Below, piece by piece: positions 1,483 through 48,590 of a stretch of DNA of 64,000 bases. The stretch's first letter is position 1, and every line of letters starts with the position of its first letter. Origin of the DNA: an uncultured virus (IMG/VR IMGVR_UViG_3300020049_005154) (Duplodnaviria > Heunggongvirae > Uroviricota > Caudoviricetes); IMG/VR virus record IMGVR_UViG_3300020049_005154; one strand, given 5' to 3'. Both the position numbers and the translations under genes were made by a program. The notes beneath the pieces are model-generated. The model saw only the letters and a list, made by a program, of their open reading frames with translations, did no database searches and was not told the DNA's origin.

Positions 1483-2237
1483 CTCCTCAATGTAAGCCGC
1501 TGGCTTGCTATGTTGGTATCCCTCTCAGCCCTACATTAGTTACTCGCCTAGGCGGAAGACTAGACCGCGTAAGTAGTTACTATAGGCAACTGTGCGAAAC
1601 GTACTGCACAGGAAGGAATAAGTATGCCCCTAAAGGCATCAGGCATATAGCATACAACAACATACGTTATTTGAATATGGGGGGTCAAGATTACACTAAT
1701 GAATTCTGGTGCCTGATTGACAGGGTATTGGCTAGTAGCATAGAGCACGTAGGCGGTAGGATACCTAGAGAAGAGAATGATCCTATCATATCCTTCCGTG
1801 GCTGCTCTATGAAGATGATACAATACACAGCAGGATTTGCTGTACCCTCTGTGTTCTTGTATCCTGTAACGCTAATACCTTGGTCGTGGTATACATCTTA
1901 CTTCATAGAATGGTCATGCTTGGAAGAAGCATACAAGGAGCCATGCTTAGACTATTTGAGATTCTGCCCTGATGCTCCTTCATTATACGCGCGAGGAATG
2001 GTAGGCATAGACTTAGCTACATATGCGGCGCACAGATCAGCAGGGCTCACACAAGTAACCAGGTACAGAGGGCTGCTAGACGCTGTGACAGGCAACATAG
2101 GTGAACGAGCACACAAGGTAGAGAAGACAGACTTTAGGAACATACTAGACTTAAGACCCGCAGAAAGGATAGTACATGACTTCAACAGTACCAGAGTTCA
2201 AAATCAATCTCTTTACGGTAGGACCGATCCCTCTTGA
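1365..2237 (+). CDS. Hypothetical protein
   Basis: 290-aa ORF filling the gap between resolvase and recombinase; overlaps both neighbours. Confidence 0.6.
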   Translation: MPRVSKVRLNQRAFGEIIDRGFWVVPCKPTVTPLDYQDIAPQCKPLACYVGIPLSPTLVTRLGGRLDRVSSYYRQLCETYCTGRNKYAPKGIRHIAYNNIRYLNMGGQDYTNEFWCLIDRVLASSIEHVGGRIPREENDPIISFRGCSMKMIQYTAGFAVPSVFLYPVTLIPWSWYTSYFIEWSCLEEAYKEPCLDYLRFCPDAPSLYARGMVGIDLATYAAHRSAGLTQVTRYRGLLDAVTGNIGERAHKVEKTDFRNILDLRPAERIVHDFNSTRVQNQSLYGRTDPS

Positions 2238-3369
2238 TAAGCCTTGGATCGGATATGCTAGAGTATCCACTAAGCGCCAGCATGAGCGTGGTATCTCTAT
2301 TGAAGACCAAGAGCAAGAGATAATCGCCTATTGCACTAAGCTGGGTATCCCTCTAGCTGGTGTGGTTAATGAGATTGCTTCATCTAAGAACATCAATGAA
2401 CGTCCGCAAATGAAGACAGTACTGTATGATATTTCCCAGAATAAGTATGCTGGTGTTATCAGTGTAGATATGAGCCGCCTTACTCGTAACGTCATTGACC
2501 AGCAAGTATTCATTGACCCGATCGGCAAGGCTGCGCGTATCAAGCTTACTAGGCATGAGTACAGAAATGCCAGTAGCGATGACTACCTAGCTAATACATT
2601 CAATGCAGTCATTGACCACAGCCAGAGGCTCAGGACTTCTATCGCTACCAAGAAAGCACTAGAAGCACATAGGCAGCAACGATACTATACACGCACCGGA
2701 TACGGTGTACCCCCGTATGTATACAGGCTAGAGGATTTGCCTAACGGTAAACAAAAGATGCACATTGATGACAAGTACAAGTTTGACTATCTACTAAACA
2801 GATACCTAGCTACTCTTGGGCTCCATATTGACCTGTGCGATGCTCTTACCTTTATGATGTCTGAGAAGGGTATTGGCAATATCACTGGTCGCCGATGTGA
2901 AGGCAGATTCACCTTACATATCGCGCTCTACTTTGAGCTTTTGCCCAAGGAGGAAGAGCATTGGTGCTTCCGGGTACGCAAGTACGATTACCGCCAATGC
3001 TATGACGCATACGACAAGGTAATCGAACAGCTTAAGCTGGATGGCAGGGAGAGTGAAGCTTGGAAGGTGCCGGTTCCAGAAACCAGGAACATTATCATTA
3101 AGCACTCTAAGACTTCAAGAAAAGCAAGGGCTAATTCAGAGGATACACCGTGGAGGAATCAAGTAGTTGCTTGGGATAAGGTCATTGAAGAGTTACCCCA
3201 AGCACTACTTGACGCTTTCATGCCATACTATCTAATCACTAACATCGCTCAATGCGCTAGGAAGTACAAGAAGGCTGCTTCCGAAGCTATAGCATTAAGA
3301 CCTATCTCTGCGAAGTATGCTGCTGCCGGTATGAGTCGAGTATCCGTGCCAAGGAGTCCTCAATCCTAG
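2176..3369 (+). CDS. Serine recombinase (resolvase/invertase catalytic domain plus a long C-terminal region)
   Basis: GYARVST(KRQ) catalytic Ser motif, SIEDQ, ASSKNINERPQM and DMSRLTRN. Confidence 0.9.
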   Translation: MTSTVPEFKINLFTVGPIPLDKPWIGYARVSTKRQHERGISIEDQEQEIIAYCTKLGIPLAGVVNEIASSKNINERPQMKTVLYDISQNKYAGVISVDMSRLTRNVIDQQVFIDPIGKAARIKLTRHEYRNASSDDYLANTFNAVIDHSQRLRTSIATKKALEAHRQQRYYTRTGYGVPPYVYRLEDLPNGKQKMHIDDKYKFDYLLNRYLATLGLHIDLCDALTFMMSEKGIGNITGRRCEGRFTLHIALYFELLPKEEEHWCFRVRKYDYRQCYDAYDKVIEQLKLDGRESEAWKVPVPETRNIIIKHSKTSRKARANSEDTPWRNQVVAWDKVIEELPQALLDAFMPYYLITNIAQCARKYKKAASEAIALRPISAKYAAAGMSRVSVPRSPQS

Positions 3370-3689: not shown

Positions 3690-6600
3690 CTAGTTAAATA
3701 CCTCTCTATTAGCTATTTGAAATTCTCGGGCTAGTTTATTCTTCTGCTTGTTAAGCTCATCAATTGCGTCCTGCTTCTGCTTCCCTGTGAGCCGAGTATC
3801 TTCCCTAACCTTCTTAGCTCTCTCATTCAGGGCAGCTATACGCTTATTGACAGATAGCACTTTTCCTGCCAATGCTAGCTTCTCTTTGTTATCTTCCTTG
3901 AATTCTTTGGCTTGTTCATTCCGTCCAGTATCCTTATATTGCTGGTACGTATTATTGAGCCTTCTTACATCCTGCATCGTATCATAGAACTTGCTAAGAT
4001 ACTTCTCAGACCTAGGATCAGTAGGTGCTGTGATAGGTCTGATAGTAGCCCTATAAGCTAGTCCTGCTAAGCCACCACTGCTAGGAGCCTCACCAGGAAT
4101 AAACGGATTGAGCATAGCGTCCGTAGCTCCTAGGATATAGGCAGATGAAGTACCTAGGTATCCTCTCAGGAAGTGCTCCAGCCGCGCCGGGGATTCGAGC
4201 GCGTCGGGCACAAATGCCCCCACCTTCCCAAGCGTTTGCGCGACCGTCTTAGCCGTCTGGCTAGTCGCGGGGCCGTACTGCTCGCTCGGGATCAATTCTG
4301 CCTGTGCTGGCGTCACAATGGGCCTGTCCGTGAAGAAGGAGCGGTTAGCGAAATCCTCTACCAACGGCATCAATGCTTGCGGTACAGGGTTAACTTCTAG
4401 TGACTGCCCAACACCTGTAGCGTTCTGCTCTAAGAAGTGCATCAAGTCGCCCTTGTCTTCTCCAAAAAACAAACCAACCGCAGTATCGGCTAAGTTAGCT
4501 AATATAGAAAGCTCAAATGGCTTAGGCGGCATGAGGAAATCATGCCCCATTGCACCACCAAAAGGGATAGCCCAATAAGTTCTTTTCTGCCAATCCTCTA
4601 GCTTATCAAACTTTTCCCTGTTAGCTGTACGATTAAGAATCCCTAGCGCCACAGTGGCTATAGACATACCTAGCACTCTAGCTTTAATTCTAGACGCTTG
4701 TGCTGGCGTAACCATGTAACCCTTACCGCCAAGTGCAGCCCTAGTGGATTGGCTGAGGGCATCTAAGCCTGCAAGCCTAGGCTGAAGGAACGGGATCAAT
4801 GCTCTAGCTATCCTAATAGACTTCCAACCTGGTGTAAGGCTTCTATTAAGAAGCTTCCTAGCTGTCTCTATAGCGGCAGCTTCTCCTAAGCCTTCAGACT
4901 TAGCTCCCCTGTACTGCTGAAGGAATGAGGCTGCTTCCTCAGCACTACCAGCACGGTGCATCCAATCAGCCAAGCCGAATAACATCTGCTTCGGGCTAAG
5001 AGATTTCCGCTTACCATAGCCAAGTAGAGCCTCAGCCGTAGCTGTAGCCGAACGCTTGCCAGTAATGATAGAGTCCAAACTATCAGGTACAATATCATAG
5101 AAGCCGCCACCTAACACACCGGCAGCAGACAGTCTTAGTAATTCAGGATTTTCTCTAATAGCTCGAAACTGGTCCTGCACATATGAAGGAAAGATTTCGC
5201 CAACCGTTTGACCATAGCGAAGAAGCCCTGTATCCTTTCCGCCAGTGACTAGGAAGTTGTTAACACCCTCTCTAAAGAAGGCTCTCACTAGGTAGTCTGG
5301 CGTATTAACAACACCGGCACTGAGCACCCTCTTAGGAATGCCCATTAAGCGGATAAGCCAGTTAGACTCTTCCGGGCCTAGGTTCATCAATACATCCGAC
5401 AGCCCGTTATCGTCTACTTCATAGAAGACTTCCTTGCCCTTCTCGTAAAACTGTAGAAGCTTCTTGCCTTGGCCCTTAGCAAACTGGTCCTTAGCTTCTA
5501 GCCTCTTACCCATCCCTAGCTCTTCCATAGAAGTAGCCAGATTCCTTCTAGCTACATTCTCTAACCCAGCCCTATACATCTTATTGATCTGCCTAATAGT
5601 AGGCTCCAGGCTAGCATTATAGCCGCCCTTACCTTCCACAAACTCATCAATAGGAACCTTAAGAGGGCCAAGACCGCCCTTTGTCAATACCTTGTGCATG
5701 TCCTGAATACTAGCATCATCCTTAAGCTTGTCCAGACGGAAGTAATAATCATCCGCCGTATCGCCATAAGCATCAGGCACCATGCCAGTCTTAACGAGGA
5801 AGTCTATCGGCACCTTAGTAGACTTATCCCAATCAGCAGCTAGCTCCTCAAACTTGGTACTAATCTCCTCTACGGAGCGACCAGTCTTCCTAGCTACAAT
5901 CTCAGGATAAGTCCTAATGATGCTGGCAAGCTTAGACCTCTGAATGTCGGCAAGCTTGCCAGCATCCTGCCTAGCAAGTAGGCGCTTAGTGGGCACATAG
6001 ATTTCAAAAGCCTGCTTGGCTACAGGACCGATCTGGTTAAGCTCATGCACTATCTCCCCAACAGACTTTACCTTAGCTTGGGGGTTAACCTCATTGAACG
6101 GTATCGGCCTACCATTAGCATCAGCCGTAACGGGAGAGACTAGCAGATTAGTATGGGCAATAGAGGAAGCATTCCTTGCCATATGTATAGCGGCAACAGC
6201 AGAAGTCTCTACAGGCTTATCTATGCCCTGCTCTGCATACCTTAATTCATTGATGTCCGATAGTAGAGCCTTCTCTACCTTCAGCCCAAAGTTCTTATCT
6301 GCTACTGCCTTGAACAATCCCCTAAGCGTAAGCGGAGTATGCTTCTGCTCTCCGAACACATCAGATGCCTGAGCAAGTAGCTCTGCATCTACGTTACTAG
6401 GGAGGGCCATACTCTCCATGTCCTTCGTCCAGCCATCAAACACTTCAGGCGAAGAGATAAGGGAGTCGGTAAGTAGACTATTACCAGAGGGGAGAAGGTT
6501 AGCAGCATCCCTAGACTGCCTCCAAATAGCTCTAGCCTTATCCTCTCCCCCATACAAAGACTTAACAAATTCCCAGAAGTCTCTCATGTATAGCTTAGTG

Positions 6601-9600
6601 TATGCTAGCCCTCTGCCTAGCATACTATTCATATCATGCTCGCCGAAAGAATTAATCTCATGTCTAGCTAGGTTATCAACAAACCATTCATCGGGGTTCG
6701 TAAACCTATAGAGGTCAGCTAGCTCATCGGAAACATACTTGATATTAGTAGGCTTCTTGTAGTAGCTCTTAAGCGCGTCAATCCTACGCTGAATCCTAGC
6801 CTTAGCCATAGGATCAGTAGTCTCTTTAAGCAGTCCCTCATACTGCCCTATGGTTTCTACCAAGTCCTTCACATACCCATGCAGTGCTTCCCGCCTAAGC
6901 TTGGCAGGAAGGAACTTAGCAATAGGATGAAGGAACTCATGGATAGCGCCATACAGATCATTCTCAGACAACTTACGGGAAATAGATATGAGATTCTGGG
7001 TAGGCGAATAGAGCCCCTTCTGGTCAAGCCTAGAAGAGAACTTAACACCTAACCCATCCATTACAGGGGCTAGATGCTTGACTAGATTAGTAACAATACC
7101 CGCCTGCTTGTCAGATAAATAGCCGGTAAGACGCTCTCTTTCAATAGCTTCTAGTATCTGGGCAGAGCCCCTAGATACTGTATCAAAGCTATCTTCAAGA
7201 ATATCCCTAGCAAGCTGACCCTGATAAGCACGAAGGTTCTTAGACTCTTCCGGCGATAGCGGTAGAGCTAAGTCTGTGTCCTGTACTTCACCTTGGGGAA
7301 AAGGGTCACGAGCTTGCTTAAGAATAGCAGTCTTCGTTTCTACCTCCGCCGGAGGAATGCCCTGCTCAGTCCAACGCTTGTTAGCTTCGTCTATCCGCCT
7401 ACTAAGCTCGGCATCTACTGCATTACCTCTAGCAGCACCCTCAGTATCAGCAGCCTCGTTGAGAGCCTTAAGTAACTGAATGCCGGGCTCATCGCCATAC
7501 TGCTTCCTGATACCGATAGCCTTCTCGGCCCTAGTGACAGCAGCTTTAGCAGATGCAGAACTACGTAGGCTTTCATCTAACTGCTTGCCGATAGTCTCTC
7601 CAAACTTATTCCACACAGCCCAACGCGCTTCACTGGCCAAATCGGGGCTACCGCCTAGCCAGTCGTTAGCAACGAAGGATGTAGTAATAGCATCTACCAA
7701 GTCCTTCTCTAGCGTATCCAGCCTAGCAGCATGTTTATCTCCTGCTGCCCTGAAGTTCTTACGTAGGCTATTAATCTCTGCTGCTGTCTTGCCTCTAGAG
7801 TTAATCAGCCGCTCAAACCTAGCCTTGACTCCAGCCCAATCGGCAGCGATCTTACCCTTAGCGGAATCATACTGCGCATATAGCTCACCAATAACCCTAG
7901 CCTTACCTTCAACAGACTGCACCTTACGGGATACAGCCTCGCTAATGGTAGGCGCATCCTCCATGATCTTTGCAGACTCGGCAGGATTAAGTGCTGCCCT
8001 GGTAACAGCAGCTTCAACAGGTGCAGTACCTTCAGCGATAAGCTTCTCTGCACTGCTCTCCGCTTGTTGCTCCCTAGCTATAGACTCTGCACGCCTATCG
8101 TCTGCTAGGTCTTGCAGAGCTTTCTGCTTAGCCGCGTTAGCCTCTCTACGCTTAGCAAACTCTGCTTCCGTTTCATCCGCTGCCCTGATAATCTCCTTAT
8201 CGGCTTCAAGCTGAGCCATCCTAGCTTTTGCTTTAGCCACCTCAGCAGCAAAATCAACAGGGGGCTGGTTAAGCGCAGCAGACGATCCAACACTACCCGG
8301 AGGCACTATATCCTTAGCAACAGCAGGGTTAGCAGCGTTAACACCGGGCACAACTAGCCCAGGCTCAGGTGCCTGAGTAGTAGGATCAAACATATCCGGC
8401 GCTACCATATTGGCAGGTACATCTGGACCTTGCGGAGTACCTCTAACAGCCTCTAAATTCTCAGGTGTGTTAGCTACAGGCTTAACCCTAGGCTCAGGCA
8501 GATCAAGATTTAGCTGTCCATCCTCTGCCTCAATCTCTTTAGAGGCAGCATTGATGATAGCCTCCGTACCGGGAGCCGGAGTAGTATTAGCAGATAGCTT
8601 GTTGTTCTTAAGTTCTATGCTAAGAGTTCGATGCCCGTTAGCCTCCTTACCGAGAGTAGCCTTGGTAACATAGACTCCTTCTAATTCACCTTTAGCTCTC
8701 TTGGTATCTATGGCAGACTTAGCTATAGACAGTGCTGCCTGCTGCTTCAATCTAAGAATGCTGGCAGGTACACCTTCACTACGTATAGATACGTCAACTA
8801 CGGCATTGCCGCTATTATTGACTTTAGCTACCTGATTATCAATTGCATCGACTATAGACTTAGTATACTGTTTCCTCAGATTATCCTTAGCCTTTTTTAC
8901 TTCGGGCTTCTTAGCAGCATTTGGGTAAACAGCATCATAATACTCTTCCGCGTACCTGCCTATATCAGCAGCTTTATCTATAGATACTGTACCATCAGGC
9001 GCATCGAAAACTATTTCCTCAGTATCGGGAGCCAGAGGAGCATTAAGGGCTTCCTTCTCTGCCTTGTCAGCAGCAGCTTTACCTGCCTCTGTCTTTGCTT
9101 GCGCCCTACGCCTATTGATCTTGTTAACTTCAAAGTCGAAATCATTAGGAACATTAGTAGCCTTATTCATGCTCCTAAACTCAGCAGCGTTAATGATAGC
9201 AGGTAGGGCTACGGCAGTGCCTAGTTCTTCAGGCGTGGGGCTACGGCCCTCCGCCGCAGCTTGAAGAGTGACACCACCAACACTAAGCATAGCATCTTTA
9301 GCAATGATTTCTCCTGCTAACTTCATATCACCAGAGCGTAGAGCACCCTTAAGTAGCTCTTGACTGGCTTTGGGTAGTTCCTTAAACAATTCCCTAGCGG
9401 CAGCATCTCCGCCACCCCTAGTAGCTTGAAGGATACGCTGGGCAGATTCCATAGCAGCAGCAGTTTCACCGCCACCCATACCGCCAGCAATACCCTCAGC
9501 AAGTATGTTAGCATTCTCGGATAGGGCAGTAGATAACGGCTGCTTGGATGCAGAGACTACTTCCCTAGCCTTCTCGCCAAACGCCATTATCCTAGCCAGT

Positions 9601-10268
9601 GCAGCTTTCCTAGCTACACTAGACATGATACCGCCAGAAGCAGCATTAATAGCTATACCAGCAGTGGCAGGGATATCTTCCTTGGACAGGTTGCCCGTCA
9701 GAGCGCCACCGGGAATGCCTGTGGTGGGCAACGCTGCCGCAACGCCGCTGAGAGCCGCAGTTGTACCGCCAGCGAGCCCTAGAGCCGGTCCAGCCATCGC
9801 CACAGGCACAGCCGCACCGACCGCCCTTGACACACCTTCGCCGATCCCATACAGCGTAGAGGGGTCTTTGCTAGCTTCCTGTGCGGACCTAGTATAAGGG
9901 TCCGTAAACAGATTGACAAGGGGCACTAGGTCTGATGCAGCGCCAAGAATGGGAGACTTAGTAAGGTCAATAGGGTTAGCCGTAGCCTGGTTGATAGCTT
10001 CAGGCAATTCTCTAAAGCCTTGCTCTACTGCCCTATCAGGTAGCCCAAAAGTAGTGCCCTCATCATCAGACATAGGATCGAATCCTACTGCCTGCTGAGT
10101 AGCCTTGGCCCTCCTAGTAGCCTGTGCTTGCTGTGCAGCACCTAGAATATGCGGGTACTTCCTACCCACAATTTCTATAGCTTTACTCTGCCTCTCATCA
10201 GGCCCATTAGGACCGATAGAGTTATAGAGGTCAAAGAACTTCTGGACCTGAGTAGGTGAAATAGGCAT
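3690..10268 (-). CDS. Large polyvalent/internal virion (ejection) protein with a zincin HExxH motif and an LPD38-like C-terminus
   Basis: 2192 aa and Ala-rich. AIHEFLHP...DEWFVD zincin-like motif. C-terminal IPFLQPRLAGLD, DWQKRTYW, PKPFEL, ANRSFFTDRPIV and SPARLEHFLRGYLG match the LPD38-type pattern. Confidence 0.8.
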   Translation of the reverse strand: MPISPTQVQKFFDLYNSIGPNGPDERQSKAIEIVGRKYPHILGAAQQAQATRRAKATQQAVGFDPMSDDEGTTFGLPDRAVEQGFRELPEAINQATANPIDLTKSPILGAASDLVPLVNLFTDPYTRSAQEASKDPSTLYGIGEGVSRAVGAAVPVAMAGPALGLAGGTTAALSGVAAALPTTGIPGGALTGNLSKEDIPATAGIAINAASGGIMSSVARKAALARIMAFGEKAREVVSASKQPLSTALSENANILAEGIAGGMGGGETAAAMESAQRILQATRGGGDAAARELFKELPKASQELLKGALRSGDMKLAGEIIAKDAMLSVGGVTLQAAAEGRSPTPEELGTAVALPAIINAAEFRSMNKATNVPNDFDFEVNKINRRRAQAKTEAGKAAADKAEKEALNAPLAPDTEEIVFDAPDGTVSIDKAADIGRYAEEYYDAVYPNAAKKPEVKKAKDNLRKQYTKSIVDAIDNQVAKVNNSGNAVVDVSIRSEGVPASILRLKQQAALSIAKSAIDTKRAKGELEGVYVTKATLGKEANGHRTLSIELKNNKLSANTTPAPGTEAIINAASKEIEAEDGQLNLDLPEPRVKPVANTPENLEAVRGTPQGPDVPANMVAPDMFDPTTQAPEPGLVVPGVNAANPAVAKDIVPPGSVGSSAALNQPPVDFAAEVAKAKARMAQLEADKEIIRAADETEAEFAKRREANAAKQKALQDLADDRRAESIAREQQAESSAEKLIAEGTAPVEAAVTRAALNPAESAKIMEDAPTISEAVSRKVQSVEGKARVIGELYAQYDSAKGKIAADWAGVKARFERLINSRGKTAAEINSLRKNFRAAGDKHAARLDTLEKDLVDAITTSFVANDWLGGSPDLASEARWAVWNKFGETIGKQLDESLRSSASAKAAVTRAEKAIGIRKQYGDEPGIQLLKALNEAADTEGAARGNAVDAELSRRIDEANKRWTEQGIPPAEVETKTAILKQARDPFPQGEVQDTDLALPLSPEESKNLRAYQGQLARDILEDSFDTVSRGSAQILEAIERERLTGYLSDKQAGIVTNLVKHLAPVMDGLGVKFSSRLDQKGLYSPTQNLISISRKLSENDLYGAIHEFLHPIAKFLPAKLRREALHGYVKDLVETIGQYEGLLKETTDPMAKARIQRRIDALKSYYKKPTNIKYVSDELADLYRFTNPDEWFVDNLARHEINSFGEHDMNSMLGRGLAYTKLYMRDFWEFVKSLYGGEDKARAIWRQSRDAANLLPSGNSLLTDSLISSPEVFDGWTKDMESMALPSNVDAELLAQASDVFGEQKHTPLTLRGLFKAVADKNFGLKVEKALLSDINELRYAEQGIDKPVETSAVAAIHMARNASSIAHTNLLVSPVTADANGRPIPFNEVNPQAKVKSVGEIVHELNQIGPVAKQAFEIYVPTKRLLARQDAGKLADIQRSKLASIIRTYPEIVARKTGRSVEEISTKFEELAADWDKSTKVPIDFLVKTGMVPDAYGDTADDYYFRLDKLKDDASIQDMHKVLTKGGLGPLKVPIDEFVEGKGGYNASLEPTIRQINKMYRAGLENVARRNLATSMEELGMGKRLEAKDQFAKGQGKKLLQFYEKGKEVFYEVDDNGLSDVLMNLGPEESNWLIRLMGIPKRVLSAGVVNTPDYLVRAFFREGVNNFLVTGGKDTGLLRYGQTVGEIFPSYVQDQFRAIRENPELLRLSAAGVLGGGFYDIVPDSLDSIITGKRSATATAEALLGYGKRKSLSPKQMLFGLADWMHRAGSAEEAASFLQQYRGAKSEGLGEAAAIETARKLLNRSLTPGWKSIRIARALIPFLQPRLAGLDALSQSTRAALGGKGYMVTPAQASRIKARVLGMSIATVALGILNRTANREKFDKLEDWQKRTYWAIPFGGAMGHDFLMPPKPFELSILANLADTAVGLFFGEDKGDLMHFLEQNATGVGQSLEVNPVPQALMPLVEDFANRSFFTDRPIVTPAQAELIPSEQYGPATSQTAKTVAQTLGKVGAFVPDALESPARLEHFLRGYLGTSSAYILGATDAMLNPFIPGEAPSSGGLAGLAYRATIRPITAPTDPRSEKYLSKFYDTMQDVRRLNNTYQQYKDTGRNEQAKEFKEDNKEKLALAGKVLSVNKRIAALNERAKKVREDTRLTGKQKQDAIDELNKQKNKLAREFQIANREVFN

Positions 10269-28365: not shown

Positions 28366-28804
28366 CCTTGGTTACATCCCTTCCCATAGCTTGTGCCCTA
28401 GCGTGTAGGTGCTGGCCTAAGTTCTCTACTGACGGCAAATGCCCCGTATCGTAAAGAGGTACGGGGGTAGGAGGGGCTATGTTAGGTGCAGACGGCATAG
28501 CGTAGTTTGAAATTACATCCTCTACTCTGGCAGGAGGTACAGGTGTATTAGTACGCTCTACTGCCCTTAGAGCCTCTGCCCCGAATGCCTGCACCATCCT
28601 GGTCTGTTGAAGCACTATATTATCTAGATGCTTTCGCTGCTCTTCCATCATCTTCTGGAATGCTTCAACAATGATGTCAGTGTTACGAGAAGGATTAAGG
28701 ATTTGTTTGGCTACCTTGGCAACAACAACTACAGCCGCCACTAGGGCGGCTAGAGCAATGACGCAAAACCCAGTCATTAAATAGGCTGTTAGGTTTGAAT
28801 CCAT
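28358..28804 (-). CDS. Membrane-anchored hypothetical protein
   Basis: N-terminal TM segment (FCVIALAALVAAVVVVA); lies between TerL and portal. Confidence 0.65.
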   Translation of the reverse strand: MDSNLTAYLMTGFCVIALAALVAAVVVVAKVAKQILNPSRNTDIIVEAFQKMMEEQRKHLDNIVLQQTRMVQAFGAEALRAVERTNTPVPPARVEDVISNYAMPSAPNIAPPTPVPLYDTGHLPSVENLGQHLHARAQAMGRDVTKDV

Positions 28805-30909
28805 TATATGCTTTCGTTGCCGTAGCTATCAGACGTGTCCATGTTCTCCTTGACCGACCCCATTGCATTAAACGCGCCAATCCTCAAAGCGCGCTCGTCC
28901 GGGAACTCCCGCAAAGCCTCTTTCTGCGTGATTTCCCCTTCTTTTCCATCAACTACATTGATCTTATTGGAGTGCCAGCACCGGAGCGCCAACGCAATAA
29001 CGCCGTCATCTTTAGACTTAGGGGACTCTTGCCCCTTCTCCAGAGCCTCATAGTAAACATGATTATCTTTAGGCTTCTGGACGAAGTTCTTCAATTGGTT
29101 GAAGATAATAGGCGAACGTATGATAGTTCTCTTGGGATTATATCTATCATTAGACTTGTTGGCATAGGAGTCTAAGATGAAATTGCGTAGGTTATTAACA
29201 AGCTTACCTTTCGTGTGCTTAGTAGACGAAAAGCCTAGCTTGTTAGTCGATCTACGGTTAACGTCATTAATGTCAAACTCACGGAAGATACGCCAAGAAG
29301 GATAGCAGTTGCTATGGATAAGGTGCTGAGACACAGGGGCACCTAGCACGGCGTTAGCTTCTTCGCAGAAGAAGGGTAGCCTAATATCTACCGCTGCTTG
29401 CGCCTGTAGGCTAGTATACCCACAGAACTTCAAGATTTCAGTAACATTCCTGCACATAATGGGGAATGGGTCTTGGGACTGGTATTCAAGTACCTGCTCC
29501 CCCGTCTCATCATCAAACACTACAAGATAGCTGTAGTCGTACATATCACCAGCGTTAGACCCAATAGTACCAGCCCAAGGGTCGAAGCCGGAAGACAGCT
29601 TACCGGAAGTATCCCAAGGATACTTATAGATTCTAAGCCAACCAGACCCGTCACGCTCTAGGCTAGCTACACCTGAAGCACCTACTCTAAGGTAGCCCGT
29701 AAGGATGGGCTCCATGATAAGGGTCTCTAGCCATTCAAAGCAATGCACAGGTATAACTGTCTTGACACCAGAGCCAGCTACAGCTTCCTTGGGATCAAGC
29801 GGATACTCTGTAGCAAACTGCTCTTGCGTTCTATAGGTATCCCCCTGTAGAGGCTTAACCATACCGACAGGATAGAAGATACCAGCCTCTAGCTTAGCTC
29901 TACGGAATGCTAGATGCTTAAGAGCTTGAATCTCCAAATCACTAGCAGGAATATGATTCCTGAAATGGTAGGAGTTAAACATTATCTCTACGCAGCTTTT
30001 CTCATAATCATCTAAGGTATCTTTGAAGTCAGACCAATGAACGCCGGGGCATAACTCAGCCGTATTCAGACTGTCCATGAAGTACGGCAGGAAGATAGCA
30101 ACGAAGCTGGACAAGAAAGGCTTGTATCCAGGCTCCCATATATTGCAGCCACCTTGGAGAGCCCAACCCTTTTCAAACCTATGAGAAAAGTAGCCTGAGC
30201 CGCCCTGCTCTGCCGTAGACTCGCACATAAGCTCTGCGGACTTGACTCGAAACAGTGTAGCTGTAAGAGCATGGACCACGGCATCAGGGTCATCATAGAA
30301 GTCTACCTCTGACATATGCAGAAGCAGGCAACCCATACCACGGACTTTATCAATGCCCGTACCGTTAGCTGTGGTAAAGAAGAAGCCAGAAGAATATAGC
30401 TCAGACTGTGGATCATCCGAGCGAAACGTAATGCTATCCTTATTACTGGTCTCAATAGGCACAACCACATCTAGCGGGAACGAATTACGGTAGATGTCAT
30501 ATAGCTCTTTATTGATGCGCAGAGCGGTAGGCTCACGCTGAGCGATAACAGCCACCTTAGTACCTGAGCGAGTGATACACCTAGACAGATACTTAAGCAG
30601 AGTGTCTGTAGTAGCCCCTACACGGCGCCCCTTAAGGATAGAGAAGTTATTAGCGATGCCCTTATTGTGGCACTCAAACCTAGCCCTGTCAATATACCTC
30701 TGGACTAAGGACGGCCTAAAAGGAATGACGAGAGTAGGGGTCTCCCCATTCTCGTCTATATTCTCCTTCAGTGTGCCTTGGGTGTCTGATACGTGCGGAG
30801 AGACTATATTGTAGTATCCGCCGTATCTGAGAGTATCTGGCCTACGGCGTATCTCTGCCCACTGATTACGCATTAATACTAGGGCGGACGCTCTATCTCT
30901 ATCGGTCAT
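28804..30909 (-). CDS. terL: Terminase large subunit
   Basis: Walker A-like LKGRRVGATT, Walker B LLHMSE, coupling motif EST, EYP, and RNase H acidic motifs GFDP, DYS and DDGVIALAL. Confidence 0.93.
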   Translation of the reverse strand: MTDRDRASALVLMRNQWAEIRRRPDTLRYGGYYNIVSPHVSDTQGTLKENIDENGETPTLVIPFRPSLVQRYIDRARFECHNKGIANNFSILKGRRVGATTDTLLKYLSRCITRSGTKVAVIAQREPTALRINKELYDIYRNSFPLDVVVPIETSNKDSITFRSDDPQSELYSSGFFFTTANGTGIDKVRGMGCLLLHMSEVDFYDDPDAVVHALTATLFRVKSAELMCESTAEQGGSGYFSHRFEKGWALQGGCNIWEPGYKPFLSSFVAIFLPYFMDSLNTAELCPGVHWSDFKDTLDDYEKSCVEIMFNSYHFRNHIPASDLEIQALKHLAFRRAKLEAGIFYPVGMVKPLQGDTYRTQEQFATEYPLDPKEAVAGSGVKTVIPVHCFEWLETLIMEPILTGYLRVGASGVASLERDGSGWLRIYKYPWDTSGKLSSGFDPWAGTIGSNAGDMYDYSYLVVFDDETGEQVLEYQSQDPFPIMCRNVTEILKFCGYTSLQAQAAVDIRLPFFCEEANAVLGAPVSQHLIHSNCYPSWRIFREFDINDVNRRSTNKLGFSSTKHTKGKLVNNLRNFILDSYANKSNDRYNPKRTIIRSPIIFNQLKNFVQKPKDNHVYYEALEKGQESPKSKDDGVIALALRCWHSNKINVVDGKEGEITQKEALREFPDERALRIGAFNAMGSVKENMDTSDSYGNESI

Positions 30910-31473: not shown

Positions 31474-31881
31474 TTAGGGGACGTAGTAGAGGATCGTAAC
31501 TCGCACTGATCCTGCCGTAGCTGTACTAAGGTTATGCGAAGCCGTAGCTGCCGCCCTAAGAGTACTGGCAGGCCAGATAAGACCGTTTCCGATAGCTACA
31601 CTACCTACCTGCGGACCTGTAGCTGTAAACACATCTAGGTCTGCTGTAAGAGAATCAGTATCTCCTACTGCGCCAAATTGAATATCGTAAGCGGAGATTG
31701 ATCCGCCTGTAAATTCAGTAAGGACATTGATAGCAAACCCTACAATAATGGCACCAGTAGGAATAGCTAGACCTGTATTGATTGTGTTAGTTGTAGCGGC
31801 TGTAGCAAAATCCGCGTAACCTAGAATAATGCTAGCTTGCAGTATACCGCCACTTGTCAGCGGATAGTCATTATCAAACAT
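31474..31881 (-). CDS. Small beta-sandwich structural-like protein
   Basis: A/T/G-rich (IPTGAIIVG...TAGSVRVTILY), resembling phage decoration or spike-base proteins. Confidence 0.55.
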   Translation of the reverse strand: MFDNDYPLTSGGILQASIILGYADFATAATTNTINTGLAIPTGAIIVGFAINVLTEFTGGSISAYDIQFGAVGDTDSLTADLDVFTATGPQVGSVAIGNGLIWPASTLRAAATASHNLSTATAGSVRVTILYYVP

Positions 31882-32410
31882 CTTCTTTATCCTTTGGTTT
31901 GATTATCTCGAAAGGTACATCTATCACATCTGGCGACTTGAACTTGTTAAGGAAATCCGCTACTAGCTTATCTGGTTGACTAGCTAGTAGCTTCTCCTCT
32001 TTCTTGGTTACTTGCTGAGTAACAGTAGTAGTAGTTGTAACTTTCTCTACATTACTTACTTCAGCTTTAACTGCCTTTGGCATGCGAGCTACTGGAGTAG
32101 AAATCTGTACTTTAGTGCCTAGAACTAAAGCTGCTGCTTTAATGTTGCCAGCTAATGCTTGTTTGCGCATACTTCCATTGATGCGCTCAATGATCCTATA
32201 CTCTAACGTCCAACAACATTGAGCATAGTTTTCATCTAGTTCTCTTGTAGCATTATGGCGCCTAATATCTACACAGGCTACGTCACATGCTGTATCCCAA
32301 TTAGGTCCATCGTCACTACTAAAATGGTTCTTCAGTAGCTCCTCCATGTTAAACAGCACATTTTGCTGTTCTTCTATGGATAAATTGCCTATGATGGTTA
32401 TTGGGTTCAT
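31874..32410 (-). CDS. Terminase small subunit-like protein
   Basis: SD AGGAG; HTH-like region followed by KQALAGNIKAAALVL; first gene of the late operon. Confidence 0.55.
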   Translation of the reverse strand: MNPITIIGNLSIEEQQNVLFNMEELLKNHFSSDDGPNWDTACDVACVDIRRHNATRELDENYAQCCWTLEYRIIERINGSMRKQALAGNIKAAALVLGTKVQISTPVARMPKAVKAEVSNVEKVTTTTTVTQQVTKKEEKLLASQPDKLVADFLNKFKSPDVIDVPFEIIKPKDKEDV

Positions 32411-32832
32411 CAGATTTCTCCTATTTAGCATGTAGAGAAATTCATGCCATTAGTGAATTATTGGTACGTAGCTGGTAGATATAGCTCTCCATTATATCTA
32501 ATGATTGTCAGTATGCCAAATTGTTTAGCATTCTTAGCTTCAATAGCTCTGATAGCATCTGACGATGCCGGTAAGGATTTCTCTTACCGATGTCACATAC
32601 TCTGTTGGTCGTCGTCGGCATGCCGCTGACGCTGCCGACTCCTCCAGACTATGTGACGGTTTTAAGGATAGCTGTTGATTTGTTAGCTTCTAACGTATCA
32701 ACGCTAACGCATACGCTTCAACTGTGCATCAAATCATCAACAACAAATGAATCAATGTCGCTATGCGACAAGTAAGGTGCTAGTCGCACATATCGAAGCA
32801 AACTGTTCTATCCCGCGAGCACGCGCGAGGCG

Positions 32833-33067: not shown

Positions 33068-33198
33068 GCAGATAGCTAGCAACAGTACGCAACGGACAAG
33101 GCTTAGGCCACGTAAGAGACGGTTACAGTGAAACCTGTGGCCGTACACAGCAATCGTGGATGGGTAGTGAGTGGTTGACCGGTACTGTTGCTTACTGC
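33068..33198 (+). ncRNA. Putative rod-shaped ncRNA abutting the tRNA-Gln 5' end
   Basis: Nested stems 33078-88/33182-92 (11 bp), 33108-12/33155-59 and 33119-28/33135-44 (with G-U pairs), capped by a TGAAAC loop. Confidence 0.6.
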
Positions 33199-33273
33199 TG
33201 AGAGGTAGCCAAGAAGTAAGGCGCTGGACTTTGGACCCAGCTATCGTTGGCTCGACTCCAACCCTCTCAGCCA
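33199..33273 (+). tRNA. tRNA-Gln (anticodon TTG), CCA encoded
   Basis: Acceptor TGAGAGG/CCTCTCA+GCCA, anticodon arm CTGGA-CTTTGGA-CCCAG, T arm GTTGG-CTCGACT-CCAAC. Confidence 0.9.
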
Positions 33274-33435
33274 AATCTTCAAGGGCGTATCTAGTTAAGG
33301 TTGGTCGCTTAGCTAGATTGCGATGCAAGGCAAGTCCCCTCCTTGGCCCGGTATGGGGACAATCTTCAAGGGTCCGCGCCTACCTCCTCCTCGGCGGCTC
33401 TATCGCAAGCATCCTACTTGTGGCCCGTATAGGAT
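33274..33435 (+). ncRNA. Two tandem three-way-junction plus pseudoknot RNA units
   Basis: Both units start with AATCTTCAAGGG (33274, 33361) and show covarying P1, P3 and loop-to-3' pairings. Confidence 0.55.
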
Positions 33436-33439
33436 AGAT

Positions 33440-33474
33440 AAACACCCCCGGATCACTCCGGGGGTGTTTGTTTT
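33440..33474. terminator. Bidirectional intrinsic terminator
   Basis: Perfect 13-bp stem AAACACCCCCGGA-TCAC-TCCGGGGGTGTTT, followed by GTTTT, between convergent units. Confidence 0.85.
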
Positions 33475-33700
33475 ACTTCCTTGGTAGGGCTGCTCTTACA
33501 GCACAATCCTTAGCTTCTAGTAGCTTCCGTAAACACCAATAGGTTTCAGCGTCTTCGATGTCGTTACCAGCATTCTTAGCTACGCTACAAGCTAGCTCAC
33601 AGAACGGCTTACTGATAGCCTGGAGCTTACTAGGTAGATGCTCGTATGCGAAGAATTGCAGGATCGGGTAAGTCTCTAACAGTTGAGCGTCGATCGACAT
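33473..33700 (-). CDS. Small helical-hairpin phage protein (possible Acb2/Tad1-like nucleotide sponge)
   Basis: FFAYEHLP..LQ.ISKPF.ELA...E....LRKLLEAKDCAVRA is a widespread phage motif; the sponge assignment is inference. Confidence 0.6.
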   Translation of the reverse strand: MSIDAQLLETYPILQFFAYEHLPSKLQAISKPFCELACSVAKNAGNDIEDAETYWCLRKLLEAKDCAVRAALPRK

Positions 33701-39907: not shown

Positions 39908-40537
39908 TAACTCCTGGCGCGTGGTTCCCGCTCCCTTGATCGTCTCCCCCTCTTGCAGCCTGTCCCGAGTCCATCCCTAGTCGCTCGCATCAACTCCCCG
40001 GATGCGAAACTAGCCTTTCCCTGTGCCCTCCCTTGCCCGTTCTCCCCTCTAGTGCTGTCACTCATGCCTTGCGCATCGAAACGCCTAGGAATCGCCTAGA
40101 ATCACGTTTCCCGCTTGTGCCCTATCTTTTCTTGCTTGATGCATCAATTTACTTTATGGATGCTTGACGCTATTAGGGTTAAGGCATGACGATTCCCCTT
40201 GCCCTTTGAAGGCATTAGGTGTCCTATCCCCGCAAGCATAGCGTATGATCAAAGTAAAGTATCGCTAGGCTACGGTTTAGGTTCCAGACTTCGACCGTTG
40301 CTCTTTGACATTTAGCCTTTCGCGCTTCGCCCGCCGCACGGATGCACGCGGCACGGGCGGATTGGGGACTCTTTAGACCCCTTGCGATTGGTGACGATAG
40401 CTTTACAGGTCAACCCTTGGACTTGATGCCTTGACGGTCAATCAAGGTATGAAGTCTTAGGGTTGACCTAAGAGACTAGTTAAGTGTGAGAACGCTTGAC
40501 AGTCATTCTCCCGCTTATAGCGGAAAGGACTAGTATC

Positions 40538-41254
40538 ATGACAAACGCAACGGTTAACTCCAATAACGTCGTTGCTCAGGTTGAAGCGATGGAGCGTTCG
40601 GTTAATCCCGCCCGCACCATTGGTTCCCTTACTGGACGTGTCAACGCTACGGGGCTTGGCTTCAAGGCTGATTCCCGCATCGGAGACTCGGCAGTGTTCG
40701 GAGCGTTGGACTCGGCACGCGAACGCTATGCGATGGAATTCCGTTCCATTCATGGTGCGGACGTTCCCGACGAAATCATCGCCTCGAATTGGGCAATGGC
40801 GGTTCGGGATAAGAGCAACAAGGCATTCTACCCTGTTGCTCAGGCTAGAGCCGTCGATGAAGCTATCGCGGCCAAGGCTGTCAATGCATCGGATGATCCC
40901 AATACCCCTACTGGAAAGGTTAGCGTTTTCAATCGCTTGAATAAGGCGATTAAGACGCTCTTTCTGAAGGTGACGATTCAGGTCAACGGGAAGGATAAGC
41001 GGGTTACGGTTTCGCCCGCTGAATGGCTTCCACCGAATCACGCGAACGCTCTTCGCCCCCACTTCACGGCGATGAACCTTTCGATGGGTTCTGTCAATGC
41101 CCCTTCCGATATCGCGAAGGGGATGGACTTCGCGGAAGCGTTCTTGCTCGAATTCGACTCCCGTAGCAAGGAAATCCGCGAATGCGCAACGGCATTCAAG
41201 GAAACGGCTGAGGAGAAGGGGTATCTCCCCCTTGAAGGTTTCAACGCTGAATAA
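40538..41254 (+). CDS. First rightward (early) hypothetical protein
   Basis: SD GAAAGGA before MTNATV; strongly biased codons. Confidence 0.75.
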   Translation: MTNATVNSNNVVAQVEAMERSVNPARTIGSLTGRVNATGLGFKADSRIGDSAVFGALDSARERYAMEFRSIHGADVPDEIIASNWAMAVRDKSNKAFYPVAQARAVDEAIAAKAVNASDDPNTPTGKVSVFNRLNKAIKTLFLKVTIQVNGKDKRVTVSPAEWLPPNHANALRPHFTAMNLSMGSVNAPSDIAKGMDFAEAFLLEFDSRSKEIRECATAFKETAEEKGYLPLEGFNAE

Positions 41255-41367
41255 TCTAACGGGGTATGGGCTAGGGGAGTTTTCCCCTTGCCTTACGTTG
41301 GACCTGCAAGGCCGAAGCCGGACGCTTTCGCAAAGCAGTGCAATCCTACGAAAAGGAGTGCCTTCCA

Positions 41368-41496
41368 ATGCGCTACAACGAGCATAGTGCCATCGTAATC
41401 CTCATGGCCTTGCGCATGTACAAGGGCGGAGATCTGACGATGGCCGAGTGCAAGAGGTATGCACTTCAATTCGTGAACAGGAGGAGTGCATTATGA
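41368..41496 (+). CDS. Small 42-aa protein (MRYNEHSAIVILMALRMYKGG...)
   Basis: SD AAAAGGAG; followed by hairpins and a terminator. Confidence 0.55.
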   Translation: MRYNEHSAIVILMALRMYKGGDLTMAECKRYALQFVNRRSAL

Positions 41497-41720: not shown

Positions 41721-41940
41721 CTCAACCCCAGAGAGGTGAGCCATGGACCAGAATCAAACGGAATTGGAGGAAACGGCTGAGGAGAAGGGGTATCTCCCCC
41801 TTGAAGGTTTCAACGCTGAATAATCTAACGGGCGGGAGCGCTAGTTTAGGTTCCCGCTTGTTCTAGTGCTCCCTTATAGGGGTTGCTAGAACGGGACACG
41901 TTTTCCCCGTTAAGTCCAAGGATAAAGAAAGGAGTCCCCG

Positions 41941-42803: not shown

Positions 42804-43235
42804 GTCCTATTTGGAGCCTGGAAATTGGCTTCAATTGAGACTGTTTACAGGTATAGTGCTTGTATTGCTATGCCCTAGAGTAGTCTCAAAACCCTGGAGC
42901 AATCCACAAGGAGAAGAGAAGATGAATTTCGATCAGCGCCGTGCCCTCTCTACGCTCAGGACCGACTTCCCCAAAGGGGTTAATTTCGCCATCCTCCGCA
43001 TGATGCTCAATCCCTCTTACCGGGAGGCTAATACGCATGACCCTAACTTTCAGCACCCTGGAATTGTGGCACTGGCGGAAGTGTGCCTCCCGTATCAGGC
43101 AGTGGAGCACCCCAGCGGCAACTTCACGGTGAAGTTTGAACAGACGGATAGAGTGCTCAGGGAGTGCAAGAAGCATGTCAGAGTCAATAACATTTACGGT
43201 GAGGAGATGTAATATCCTCGCCAAGTAATCAATCT

Positions 43236-44478: not shown

Positions 44479-44700
44479 CAACCATCCTAGCGTTGCTCTC
44501 GCATCCCGCAATGGGATAACGCAACGATCAGTATGCCTAAAAGCCTCTAAGGGTAAGGCTACTAGGATGGTTGCAAATAGGACAAGGAGAAGGGTTCCCG
44601 CCTTACCCTTCGCAATTCCTCTAGCGGCTCTTCTCCTTGTCCTAATCTTCTACACAGTGTTGTAATATGCCCTCTAAATGAGGGTGTATTAGAGCACTGT
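44479..44700 (+). ncRNA. Putative three-domain structured RNA with an 11-nt inter-domain pairing
   Basis: Stems 44479-90/44562-73, 44578-92/44630-44 and 44663-74/44680-91; 44549-59 is complementary to 44600-10. Confidence 0.65.
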
Positions 44701-47700: not shown

Positions 47701-48415
47701 GATATTTGGCAGGTTGAACAACATGGGCTTCAAGCCTAGTCCTGTACTTAGCAAGAAATCGCTATCAGAGAACGGCAGAAGCATCTTAGCCAACCTAATT
47801 CGTAGGACACGACGCGGTGAAGTAGTAGTGAAAGGCCGTTGAAGTAAGAAGCACACTCTCAGAAAGGATTAGCACAATGGCTAATCAGAACACAACACGG
47901 CTTCGCAAGGCAGAGCAGCAGAGGGCAGGCGCAAGTCGTCGCGGGGACGAAACCCAGGCGAGCGCCCATCAGGGCAGCGTTGACCGCCAGAAGCGGGCAC
48001 GGGGGCTGATGCTGGCCTTCCACAACGGGCTCCCGCATGGCGTGGATCGCTCCAGTGCAGGTAATGAGTTCCGTCGCGACTTTCAGCCACTTAGCTGCAC
48101 CAATCTCCCGAATAGGTGACTAACATGAAGAAGGCACGTAAGCGGTACTCATGGGGCCGTAAGATGCGTAGGGATAACACGTATGTTAAGGGGCGAAAAG
48201 ATATTGGTGCCATTACAGGTCAAGTATGGGCAGAAATTAAGTACGGATTTCCTACTGTCCGCGCAACAAAGCCAGCTAGTAAGTAACACTTTGGGCATCT
48301 AGGTTCCTACCTCTCTCCCGATATTCCGTGCGTATTGAAAGCCTAGAAGCACGGCGGCTACGGTATCCGATAGACTACTTAGATGAAGATATGTTAAGTA
48401 GTCAGCCGTAACTAT

Positions 48416-48487
48416 AGGCGCGTAGCTTAAAAGTAAAGCATACGTCTTATACACGGATAGATGGTGGTGCAACTCCACCCGCGCCTA
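48416..48487 (+). tRNA. tRNA-Ile (anticodon TAT), CCA not encoded
   Basis: Acceptor AGGCGCG/CGCGCCT, D arm GCTT/AAGC, anticodon arm TACGT-CTTATAC-ACGGA, T arm GGTGG-TGCAACT-CCACC. Confidence 0.75.
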
Positions 48488-48511
48488 AATCACTTTAACT
48501 GCTAAGTCTGC

Positions 48512-48590
48512 GCCGGAGTAGCCCAACTGGCAGAATGGCAATGTGCTTAAAACACATGAGTTGCGGGTTCGAGTCCCGCTTCCGGCACCA
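48512..48590 (+). tRNA. tRNA-Leu (anticodon TAA) with a short variable loop, CCA encoded
   Basis: Acceptor GCCGGAG/TTCCGGC+ACCA, anticodon arm ATGTG-CTTAAAA-CACAT, T arm GCGGG-TTCGAGT-CCCGC. Confidence 0.9.

Follow-up and report, generated by a model that had tools for sequence, protein, structure and literature searches.

The window analysed here, a stretch of 64,000 nucleotides from an uncultured Caudoviricetes virus (IMG/VR record IMGVR_UViG_3300020049_005154), belongs to a novel tailed phage and encodes a large terminase on the minus strand (28804-30909, PHROG 2). The terminase is surrounded by a block of minus-strand ORFs that is almost devoid of family matches and presumably codes for structural proteins. 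Small minus-strand genes occupy the region from 33.5 to 41 kb, and the early or replication genes are found on the plus strand from approximately 41.9 kb onwards. A near-consensus sigma-70-type promoter (TTGGCA and TATAAT separated by 17 nt, 11 of 12 matches) is located on the minus strand at 32491-32519 and points towards the first gene of the terminase/structural block. Other proteins encoded by the phage include a GroES-like co-chaperonin, a serine recombinase whose N-terminal domain is of the resolvase type, and a protein of 2192 residues that carries an LPD38 domain; the coordinates for the three are 274-624, 2176-3369 and 3690-10268.

Two minus-strand genes, 31874-32431 and 33473-33700, flank a region of approximately 1 kb without a supported ORF, which contains tRNA-Gln, two structured units, referred to as U1 and U2, and an intrinsic terminator (Table 1). 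As both neighbouring genes are located on the minus strand, tRNA-Gln, U1, U2 and the terminator constitute a separate plus-strand unit, and tRNA-Gln is presumed to be the first element of a small transcription unit. There is no gap between the CCA end of tRNA-Gln at position 33273 and the start of U1 at 33274, and the terminator hairpin begins 4 nt past the end of U2. The terminator is also positioned just beyond the stop codon of the convergent minus-strand gene 33473-33700 and therefore probably works in both directions. None of the three ORFs overlapping U1 and U2 had a PHROG or Pfam match, and no promoter was recognised upstream of tRNA-Gln by a simple scan.

Upstream of tRNA-Gln, at 33078-33192 on the plus strand, a perfect 11-bp long-range stem (AGCAACAGUAC/GUACUGUUGCU) closes 93 nt containing an internal 10-bp hairpin. 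This element, which is of the stem-closed spacer type and stops 6 nt ahead of tRNA-Gln, is presumed to be a second structured element of the same transcript; an Rfam search of the 780 nt upstream of the units, including this element, gave no match. The window codes for tRNA-Ile(UAU), tRNA-Leu(UAA) and tRNA-Gln(UUG), with a tRNA site given at 48415-48590 on the plus strand. The same Ile/Leu/Gln trio is adjacent in Agathobaculum phage AB434P2, whose tRNA-Gln is 80% identical to the one described here. tRNA-Ile of our phage is, like tRNA-Gln, followed by AAUC.

A preliminary description of this DNA had reported two units with one architecture and different sequences in the trailer of tRNA-Gln, and all helices that it had listed were found by sequence inspection at the positions shown in Table 1. 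Both units open with the identical 12 bases AAUCUUCAAGGG, and the window contains the 12-mer AATCTTCAAGGG nowhere else than at these two unit starts. The shared fold consists of a P1 helix with a GGG/CCC core, a variable P2 hairpin and a 5-bp P3 helix, the loop of which pairs with a strand just 3' of P1, so that the loop-tail pairing of each unit represents an H-type pseudoknot. Since this architecture is common to both units despite their differing sequences, they are probably small non-coding RNAs made together with the tRNA.

Table 1. Positions of the tRNA, the structured units and their helices, and the terminator within the window
Feature	Position	Strand	Description or basis
tRNA-Gln(UUG), encoded CCA	33199-33273	+	ARAGORN; Rfam tRNA model, 55.6 bits
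U1	33274-33360	+	Sequence; three-way junction and pseudoknot
U1 leader	33274-33282	+	AAUCUUCAA
U1 P1	33283-33286/33346-33349	+	GGGC/GCCC
U1 P2	33289-33299/33308-33318	+	11-bp hairpin, one G.U, loop GUUGGUCG
U1 junction before P3; linker		+	UGCGAUG; GGUAU
U1 P3	33326-33330/33341-33345	+	CAAGG/CCUUG
U1 pseudoknot	33334-33339/33355-33360	+	Loop strand GUCCCC with GGGGAC
U2	33361-33435	+	Sequence; three-way junction and pseudoknot
U2 leader	33361-33369	+	Identical to U1 leader
U2 P1	33370-33374/33422-33426	+	GGGUC/GGCCC, one U.G
U2 P2	33377-33380/33393-33396	+	CGCC/GGCG, 12-nt loop UACCUCCUCCUC
U2 junction before P3; linker		+	GCUCUAUC; GUA
U2 P3	33405-33409/33417-33421	+	GCAAG/CUUGU, one G.U, 7-nt loop CAUCCUA
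U2 pseudoknot	33411-33416/33430-33435	+	AUCCUA with UAGGAU
Intrinsic terminator	33440-33477	+	Perfect 13-bp stem 33440-33452/33457-33469, then GUUUUAC; repeat search and terminator scan
U3, probable inverted diverged copy	44530-44621	-	Covariance model of U2 alone
U3 leader	44617-44609	-	AAUUGCGAA; sequence
U3 P1	44608-44601/44558-44551	-	GGGUAAGG/CCUUACCC; 8 bp, 10 bp with flanking AA/UU
U3 P3	44574-44570/44562-44558	-	GCAAC/GUAGC; 4 of 5 pairs, one A.A mismatch
Partner of U3 CU-rich stretch	44630-44642	-	GGACAAGGAGAAG; perfect complement of 44592-44580; blastn self-match, MFE
Partner of U3 P3 loop and flanks	44479-44490	-	CUAGGAUGGUUG; perfect 12-nt complement of CAACCAUCCUAG; blastn, MFE

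The structural motif described earlier is genuine and exceeds chance by a wide margin. When the leader plus GGG was kept fixed and the remainder was shuffled with preservation of dinucleotides, the whole architecture was obtained in 1 of 20,000 shuffles for U1 and 2 of 20,000 for U2. In this test, an architecture was counted if a P1 with 4 bp or more was present at the leader, if a 5-bp hairpin lay directly against the 3' strand of P1, and if the loop of this hairpin formed a 6-bp Watson-Crick helix with the tail within 8 nt. A looser, unanchored descriptor matched approximately 12 other places in 128 kb (both strands), and the significance therefore lies in the anchoring and the tandem repetition.

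The motif had also been described as covarying. This applies to the loop-tail helix and to P2 and not to P1 and P3, which are mostly invariant. Aligned on its 3' strand, the loop-tail helix has five pairs shared between U1 and U2, none of which is broken: two are unchanged C-G pairs and three carry compensatory double changes (C-G to U-A twice and U-A to A-U once). The P2 sequence is wholly replaced between the two units, yet a hairpin is formed in both. P1 (GGG/CCC) and P3 (CAAG/CUUG) are near-invariant, with the exception of one C-G to U.G change, and are thus uninformative on pairing either way. Real covariation is limited to the pseudoknot and the replaced P2, and it is a covariation between paralogues within the window. 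These pair counts were made by hand, since MAFFT alignments of the units were not structural. Three G.U pairs, in P2 of U1 and in P1 and P3 of U2, would be A.C mismatches on the other strand, which argues that it is the plus strand that folds. The leader is unpaired, and its 12 of 12 identical bases, compared to the heavy divergence elsewhere in the units, suggest that it is under selection, be it for recognition, for cleavage or for use as a 5' seed.

For U1, folding energies of -23.3 kcal/mol for the three-way junction, -23.0 kcal/mol for P2 with the loop-tail helix and -13.1 kcal/mol for P2 alone were calculated. The junction and the loop-tail helix hence each add approximately 10 kcal/mol on top of P2, and the pseudoknot contributes roughly the same stability as the junction. 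Nested minimum free energy folding is weak, with z-scores of -1.46 for U1 and +0.63 for U2. In U2, a competing fold with an extended P2, which uses the GGG of P1, has a predicted energy of -17.4 kcal/mol, compared to -14.9 kcal/mol for the three-way junction without the pseudoknot. We regard the predicted thermodynamics as permissive and not decisive. From geometric reasoning, the linkers of 3-5 nt look short if P1 and P3 stack coaxially.

A covariance model built from U2 alone and run on both strands without filters gave 111.8 bits for U2 itself and 20.8 bits for a site at 44617-44542 on the minus strand (U3), compared to 14.0 bits for the best unrelated match and 11.2 bits for U1. The P3 loop of U3, CAUCCUA, is exactly that of U2, and the helices differ from those of U2 by U.G to U-A and C-G to A-U changes in P1 and by a flip of the loop-closing P3 pair from G-C to C-G. 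A local P2 and a clean short-range pseudoknot are both missing from U3. A CU-rich stretch of U3 and GGACAAGGAGAAG, which is located just upstream, form a perfect helix of 13-14 bp, and the P3 loop plus its flanks (44573-44562) has its complement approximately 58 nt past the 3' strand of P1. The latter CUAGGAUGGUUG/CAACCAUCCUAG helix is a long-range counterpart of the loop-tail helix of U1 and U2, and the theme of a P1 combined with a P3 loop paired 3' of P1 thus recurs with a different spacing. Based on its covariance-model score and structure, U3 is a probable third copy of the units. By sequence alone it is inseparable from background: in nhmmer searches with single-unit queries, U2 matched U3 with an E-value of 11, and there was no match between U1 and U2. 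In a genome-wide local alignment, U3 was the top match for U2, just 2 points above noise, and a pairwise shuffle test (0 of 1000), which was run after the scan, is uncorrected for the search space.

U3 sits in a 260-nt gap between plus-strand early genes, to which it is antisense, and is not beside a tRNA. This gap folds very stably, with z-scores of -8.05 for the plus and -5.46 for the minus strand. Between 44465 and 44735, three interleaved perfect helices of 13-14, 10 and 12 bp are found in addition to a plus-strand-specific hairpin of approximately 20 bp. The plus strand also contains a 32-codon ORF (44567-44665) coding for a peptide that is first basic and then hydrophobic, and its start codon and Shine-Dalgarno-like bases lie inside the helices. 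The gap could contain a gene for a small membrane peptide together with its antisense RNA, or the CU-rich sequence could have produced an artefact. No Rfam match was obtained for the U3 region.

The compensatory pairs are seen between the paralogues U1 and U2; no homologue outside the window was detected when viral, metagenome and genome collections and a phage database were scanned with sequence patterns and proteins. The pattern scans demanded exact conserved motifs, and distant structural relatives could have escaped them. In IMG/VR, the leader plus GCAAG pattern matched at least 120 loci, none of them unit-like among the matches listed, and the leader plus CTTG..GCCCG pattern matched one locus, which was coding. 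A leader-free pattern of the 3' half matched 19 loci in the same collection, all coding or chance matches, and a U2/U3 consensus pattern matched one coding locus. The leader pattern was found at 33 loci in JGI metagenomes and 23 in GTDB genomes, which is about the chance expectation, and none of these had the fold. In the phage database, blastn at an E-value of 1e-5 gave two records, which matched the tRNA only, and at E-values up to 10 seven records with short chance matches. The phage itself has few relatives: its terminase has two, with 55-56% identity, among 5.8 billion clustered proteins, and neither single-protein and alignment scans of the viral, metagenome and genome collections nor tblastn against phages gave a further match. 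The stretch was found in two drinking-water DNA runs as identical short low-depth fragments without variants, and no RNA run was listed among the sequencing runs containing it. The modules may be private to this phage lineage, a view that we hold tentatively. As the observation comes from one uncultivated drinking-water phage and from paralogues only, it amounts to a lead rather than a family. As an orphan, the element represents a real but narrow novelty.

Several sequence features could have pointed to a regulatory target. The P2 loop of U2 had been noted as anti-Shine-Dalgarno-like, and this is real as sequence, the loop being CCUCC-rich. Within the window, no targets above chance were found for the P2 loops of U1 and U2, and exact or near complements of the P2 and P3 loops occurred at chance level. 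U2 contains CAUCCUACUU, which is exactly complementary to AAGUAGGAUG in the ribosome-binding/start region of an early ORF beginning at 44965. Pairing of U2 with the translation start region at 44954 had a predicted energy of -35.9 kcal/mol, and 1 of 200 shuffles was as low, in what was one of 18 tests; in genome-wide scans, this start region was outside the top ten for U2. The leader is complementary, with one G.U pair, to CCCUUGAAGGUU at 41229 and 41798, where approximately 0.5 matches are expected by chance; CCCUUGAAGGUU corresponds to the PLEGF codons at the 3' ends of two paralogous small early ORFs on the plus strand. Once the size of the search is taken into account, the anti-Shine-Dalgarno loop, the CAUCCUACUU/AAGUAGGAUG complementarity and the leader/CCCUUGAAGGUU complementarity are all at chance level.

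At least six early genes, the plus-strand genes at 44719, 44954, 45126, 45861, 46075 and 53537, have an identical 14-nt start region, GGAGAAGUA(A/G)GAUG, which as a further lead to a regulatory role likewise does not rise above chance. A second recurrent start type, CAAGGAGAAGG, precedes other early genes, for example those at 42906, 43298, 43706, 44282 and 50646. The two small paralogous ORFs contain a repeat of approximately 62 nt (41182-41240 and 41753-41809, 569 nt apart), which encodes their common C-terminal 17 residues, ETAEEKGYLPLEGFNAE, on the plus strand. This plus-strand coding repeat renders the long minus-strand ORF 40457-41368 doubtful.

We propose, with a probability of roughly one in three (0.35), that U1 and U2 are small RNAs which share a transcript with the tRNA, are released by cuts in the A/U-rich spacers and owe their stability to the pseudoknots, with P2 as the working arm. 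In this model, tRNA-Gln, U1, U2 and the terminator would be made as one tiny stand-alone plus-strand transcript. Host tRNA-maturation nucleases would then cut the precursor in the single-stranded A/U-rich AAUCUUCAA spacers, and 3' exonucleases would trim the products back to the pseudoknot in the case of U1 or to the terminator in the case of U2, so that compact, stable small RNAs remain. The scaffold of P1, P3 and pseudoknot would provide stability, and the variable P2, an 11-bp hairpin in U1 and a short stem with a 12-nt CCUCC-rich loop in U2, the specific function. We infer the co-transcription, the cleavage in the spacers, the stability and any action in trans, beside an architecture and a genomic context that can be read directly from the locus. 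Among the three functions that had been put forward for the motif, ribozyme, nuclease roadblock and small RNA scaffold, the last appears to fit the context best.

It could also be that the units are passive, that is, that they are folded trailers which guide or insulate the maturation of tRNA-Gln or block exonucleases, as an xrRNA-like roadblock or as a stop for 3' exonucleases, and have no function in trans. That the units lie directly behind the tRNA would fit such a role, and structured elements of a simpler kind are found next to tRNA-Gln both in the phage studied here (the 11-bp-stem element at 33078-33192) and in Agathobaculum phage AB434P2, whose tRNA is followed by a spacer of 92 nt with a closing stem of 15 bp. 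However, two elaborate modules would exceed the need of a CCA-encoding tRNA with a strong terminator, a passive role leaves the variability of P2 and the exactly conserved leader unexplained, and the probable U3 is not near a tRNA. For a roadblock, the closest precedent is the class 1 flaviviral xrRNA, whose three-way junction with a loop-tail latch (PK2; PMC8374639) is present in both U1 and U2 and which frequently occurs in tandem. The resemblance in topology claimed earlier thus stands for the junction and the 3' latch. As described in the same source, the class is also defined by PK1, in which the 5' end pairs into the junction to form an encircling ring, and on inspection a counterpart conserved in both units was not found: UUG, a possible partner for the leader's CAA, is available only in U1, and nothing in the U2 junction GCUCUAUC is complementary to the leader. 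A conserved base triple and resistance to 5'-3' exonucleases are further hallmarks of the class. The units further differ from flaviviral xrRNAs by their DNA phage context, a bacterial host and the absence of sequence likeness. The suggestion of a nuclease roadblock is therefore unsupported, and a purely passive role as a whole seems to us rather unlikely.

A new small self-cleaving ribozyme, which would cut in or beside the leader and thereby free the tRNA, U1 and U2 without proteins, is distinctly less probable still, although the size of the units and their pseudoknotted fold are typical of small ribozymes and the leader is found exactly at both unit boundaries. In addition, U1, U2 and U3 have unpaired positions in common, namely AAU....AA before P1, AU before P3, CA at the opening of the P3 loop and UA after P1. 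At gathering thresholds, Rfam models matched only the three tRNAs in the window and nothing on the units, in agreement with the earlier proposal that the motif would be new, and a permissive search of 33150-33500 with E-values up to 10 gave no ribozyme or riboswitch family on the plus strand. The sole twister match (11.2 bits, compared to a gathering score of 37.6) is on the minus strand inside the tRNA. Twister ribozymes have two pseudoknots, T1 and T2, and conserved loop nucleotides. The units are similar to them only in part, with elements corresponding to P2-P3-P4-T1, and do not possess T2, a P1 partner or the conserved loops. The CUGAUGA/GAAA core of hammerhead ribozymes, including the permuted types (PMC10085705), is absent from the units, and there was no Rfam match for this class.

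Phage tRNAs are known to be flanked by self-cleaving theta ribozymes, the tRNA-associated minimal HDV-like ribozymes of gut phages, for which a catalytic C as the first base of J4/2 and a tRNA at most 5 nt from the cleavage site are described in PMC10879173. With these, the units have in common a structured, pseudoknotted RNA straight downstream of a phage tRNA, a P3 that is followed directly by the 3' strand of P1, and a pairing between loop and downstream sequence at the position of P1.1. However, the HDV-like strand order is P1-P2-P3-P3'-P1'-(P1.1)-P4-P4'-P2', whereas that of the units is P1-(P2 hairpin)-P3-loop-P3'-P1'-tail, and on inspection no strand 3' of P1' pairs with the P1-P3 region. 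Neither unit has a P2 formed with the 3' end, a P4 or a J4/2 segment, which bears out the earlier reading that they lack the catalytic J4/2 C; they are not theta ribozymes. Their P1 of 4-5 bp starts 9 nt after the CCA, and no HDV-type Rfam model matched at E-values up to 10. A cut 9 nt beyond the CCA would not produce a mature tRNA end, and the unpaired junctions are poorly conserved, with 3 of 7 positions in the junction before P3. The proposal of a candidate ribozyme has gained no indication of catalysis. On a bolder reading, the units could represent a new class of RNA device made from a tRNA precursor, either (a) a ribozyme cutting at AAUCUUCAA/GGG or (b) paired riboregulators with a common 5'-terminal seed, made by tRNA 3' processing, and interchangeable targeting arms; we consider this a long shot.

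It is highly improbable that U1 and U2 are derived tRNA-like structures, that is, remnants of duplicated tRNA genes without the D arm, which would be retained because RNase P acts on them or because they serve as decoys for factors that bind tRNA. P1 would map to the acceptor stem, P2 to an anticodon-like arm and P3 to the T arm, and P3 indeed abuts the 3' strand of P1 as the T arm abuts the acceptor strand. In both U2 and U3, a stem of 5 bp carries a 7-nt loop, the stacked pairs of U3 number 7+5 as in a tRNA, and CUAUCG is found at the variable-loop/T-stem boundary in both tRNA-Gln and U2. Against this, ARAGORN and the Rfam tRNA model matched the true tRNA-Gln only, and the relaxed mitochondrial mode of ARAGORN gave noise and nothing on the plus strand of the units. 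When compared with tRNA-Gln, U1 and U2 were no more similar than expected by chance (886 and 687 of 1000 shuffles, respectively, were as good), and the similarity of U3 was marginal (26 of 1000, uncorrected). The T-loop pattern is also absent from the loops. Equally improbable is a small duplicated element at the DNA level, or a neutral repeat, without RNA function: the probable U3 has the opposite orientation and its region is rich in perfect inverted repeats, but the G.U pairs point to one strand, neutral DNA would not be expected to show interleaved complementarity maintained by compensatory changes, and the units lie between a tRNA and a terminator.

Compared to known small RNAs, the best non-tRNA Rfam match was the alphaproteobacterial sRNA ar14 (RF02344), with 23.7 bits and a gathering score of 58.8. 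The likeness consists of a hairpin with a CCUCCUCC loop and a terminator further downstream, and the match uses an alternative U2 hairpin together with the terminator, skipping P3 and the pseudoknot. The units do not belong to this family. Type III antitoxins of the ToxI type consist of near-identical tandem repeats of approximately 35-45 nt, with a terminator and a toxin gene downstream. In contrast, the units are 75-87 nt long, their likeness is confined to the leader and a few motifs, and no plus-strand gene follows the terminator.

Small RNAs are released from tRNA precursors in other systems, for example 3'ETS-leuZ of E. coli, the tRNA-miRNA transcripts of murine gammaherpesvirus 68 and, likewise, the species 1 and 2 RNAs of the T4 tRNA cluster. 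The processing we propose for U1 and U2 follows the same principle, in which a non-tRNA RNA is carried on a tRNA transcript and freed by tRNA-processing nucleases; it is putative here, and the units have no sequence or structural relation to these RNAs. If U1 and U2 are indeed stable regulators or ribozymes, they would represent a new biogenesis route or a new catalytic fold, and their compact scaffold, in which one arm can be exchanged, would lend itself to the engineering of RNAs. The spacer of phage AB434P2 is plainly stem-closed and has neither the three-way-junction architecture nor the sequence of the units. Functional RNAs are increasingly found beside phage tRNAs, theta ribozymes and other structured spacers among them, and U1 and U2 would be a structurally distinct further kind, in which a pseudoknot-locked three-way junction is duplicated with a swappable arm on a predicted tRNA transcript.
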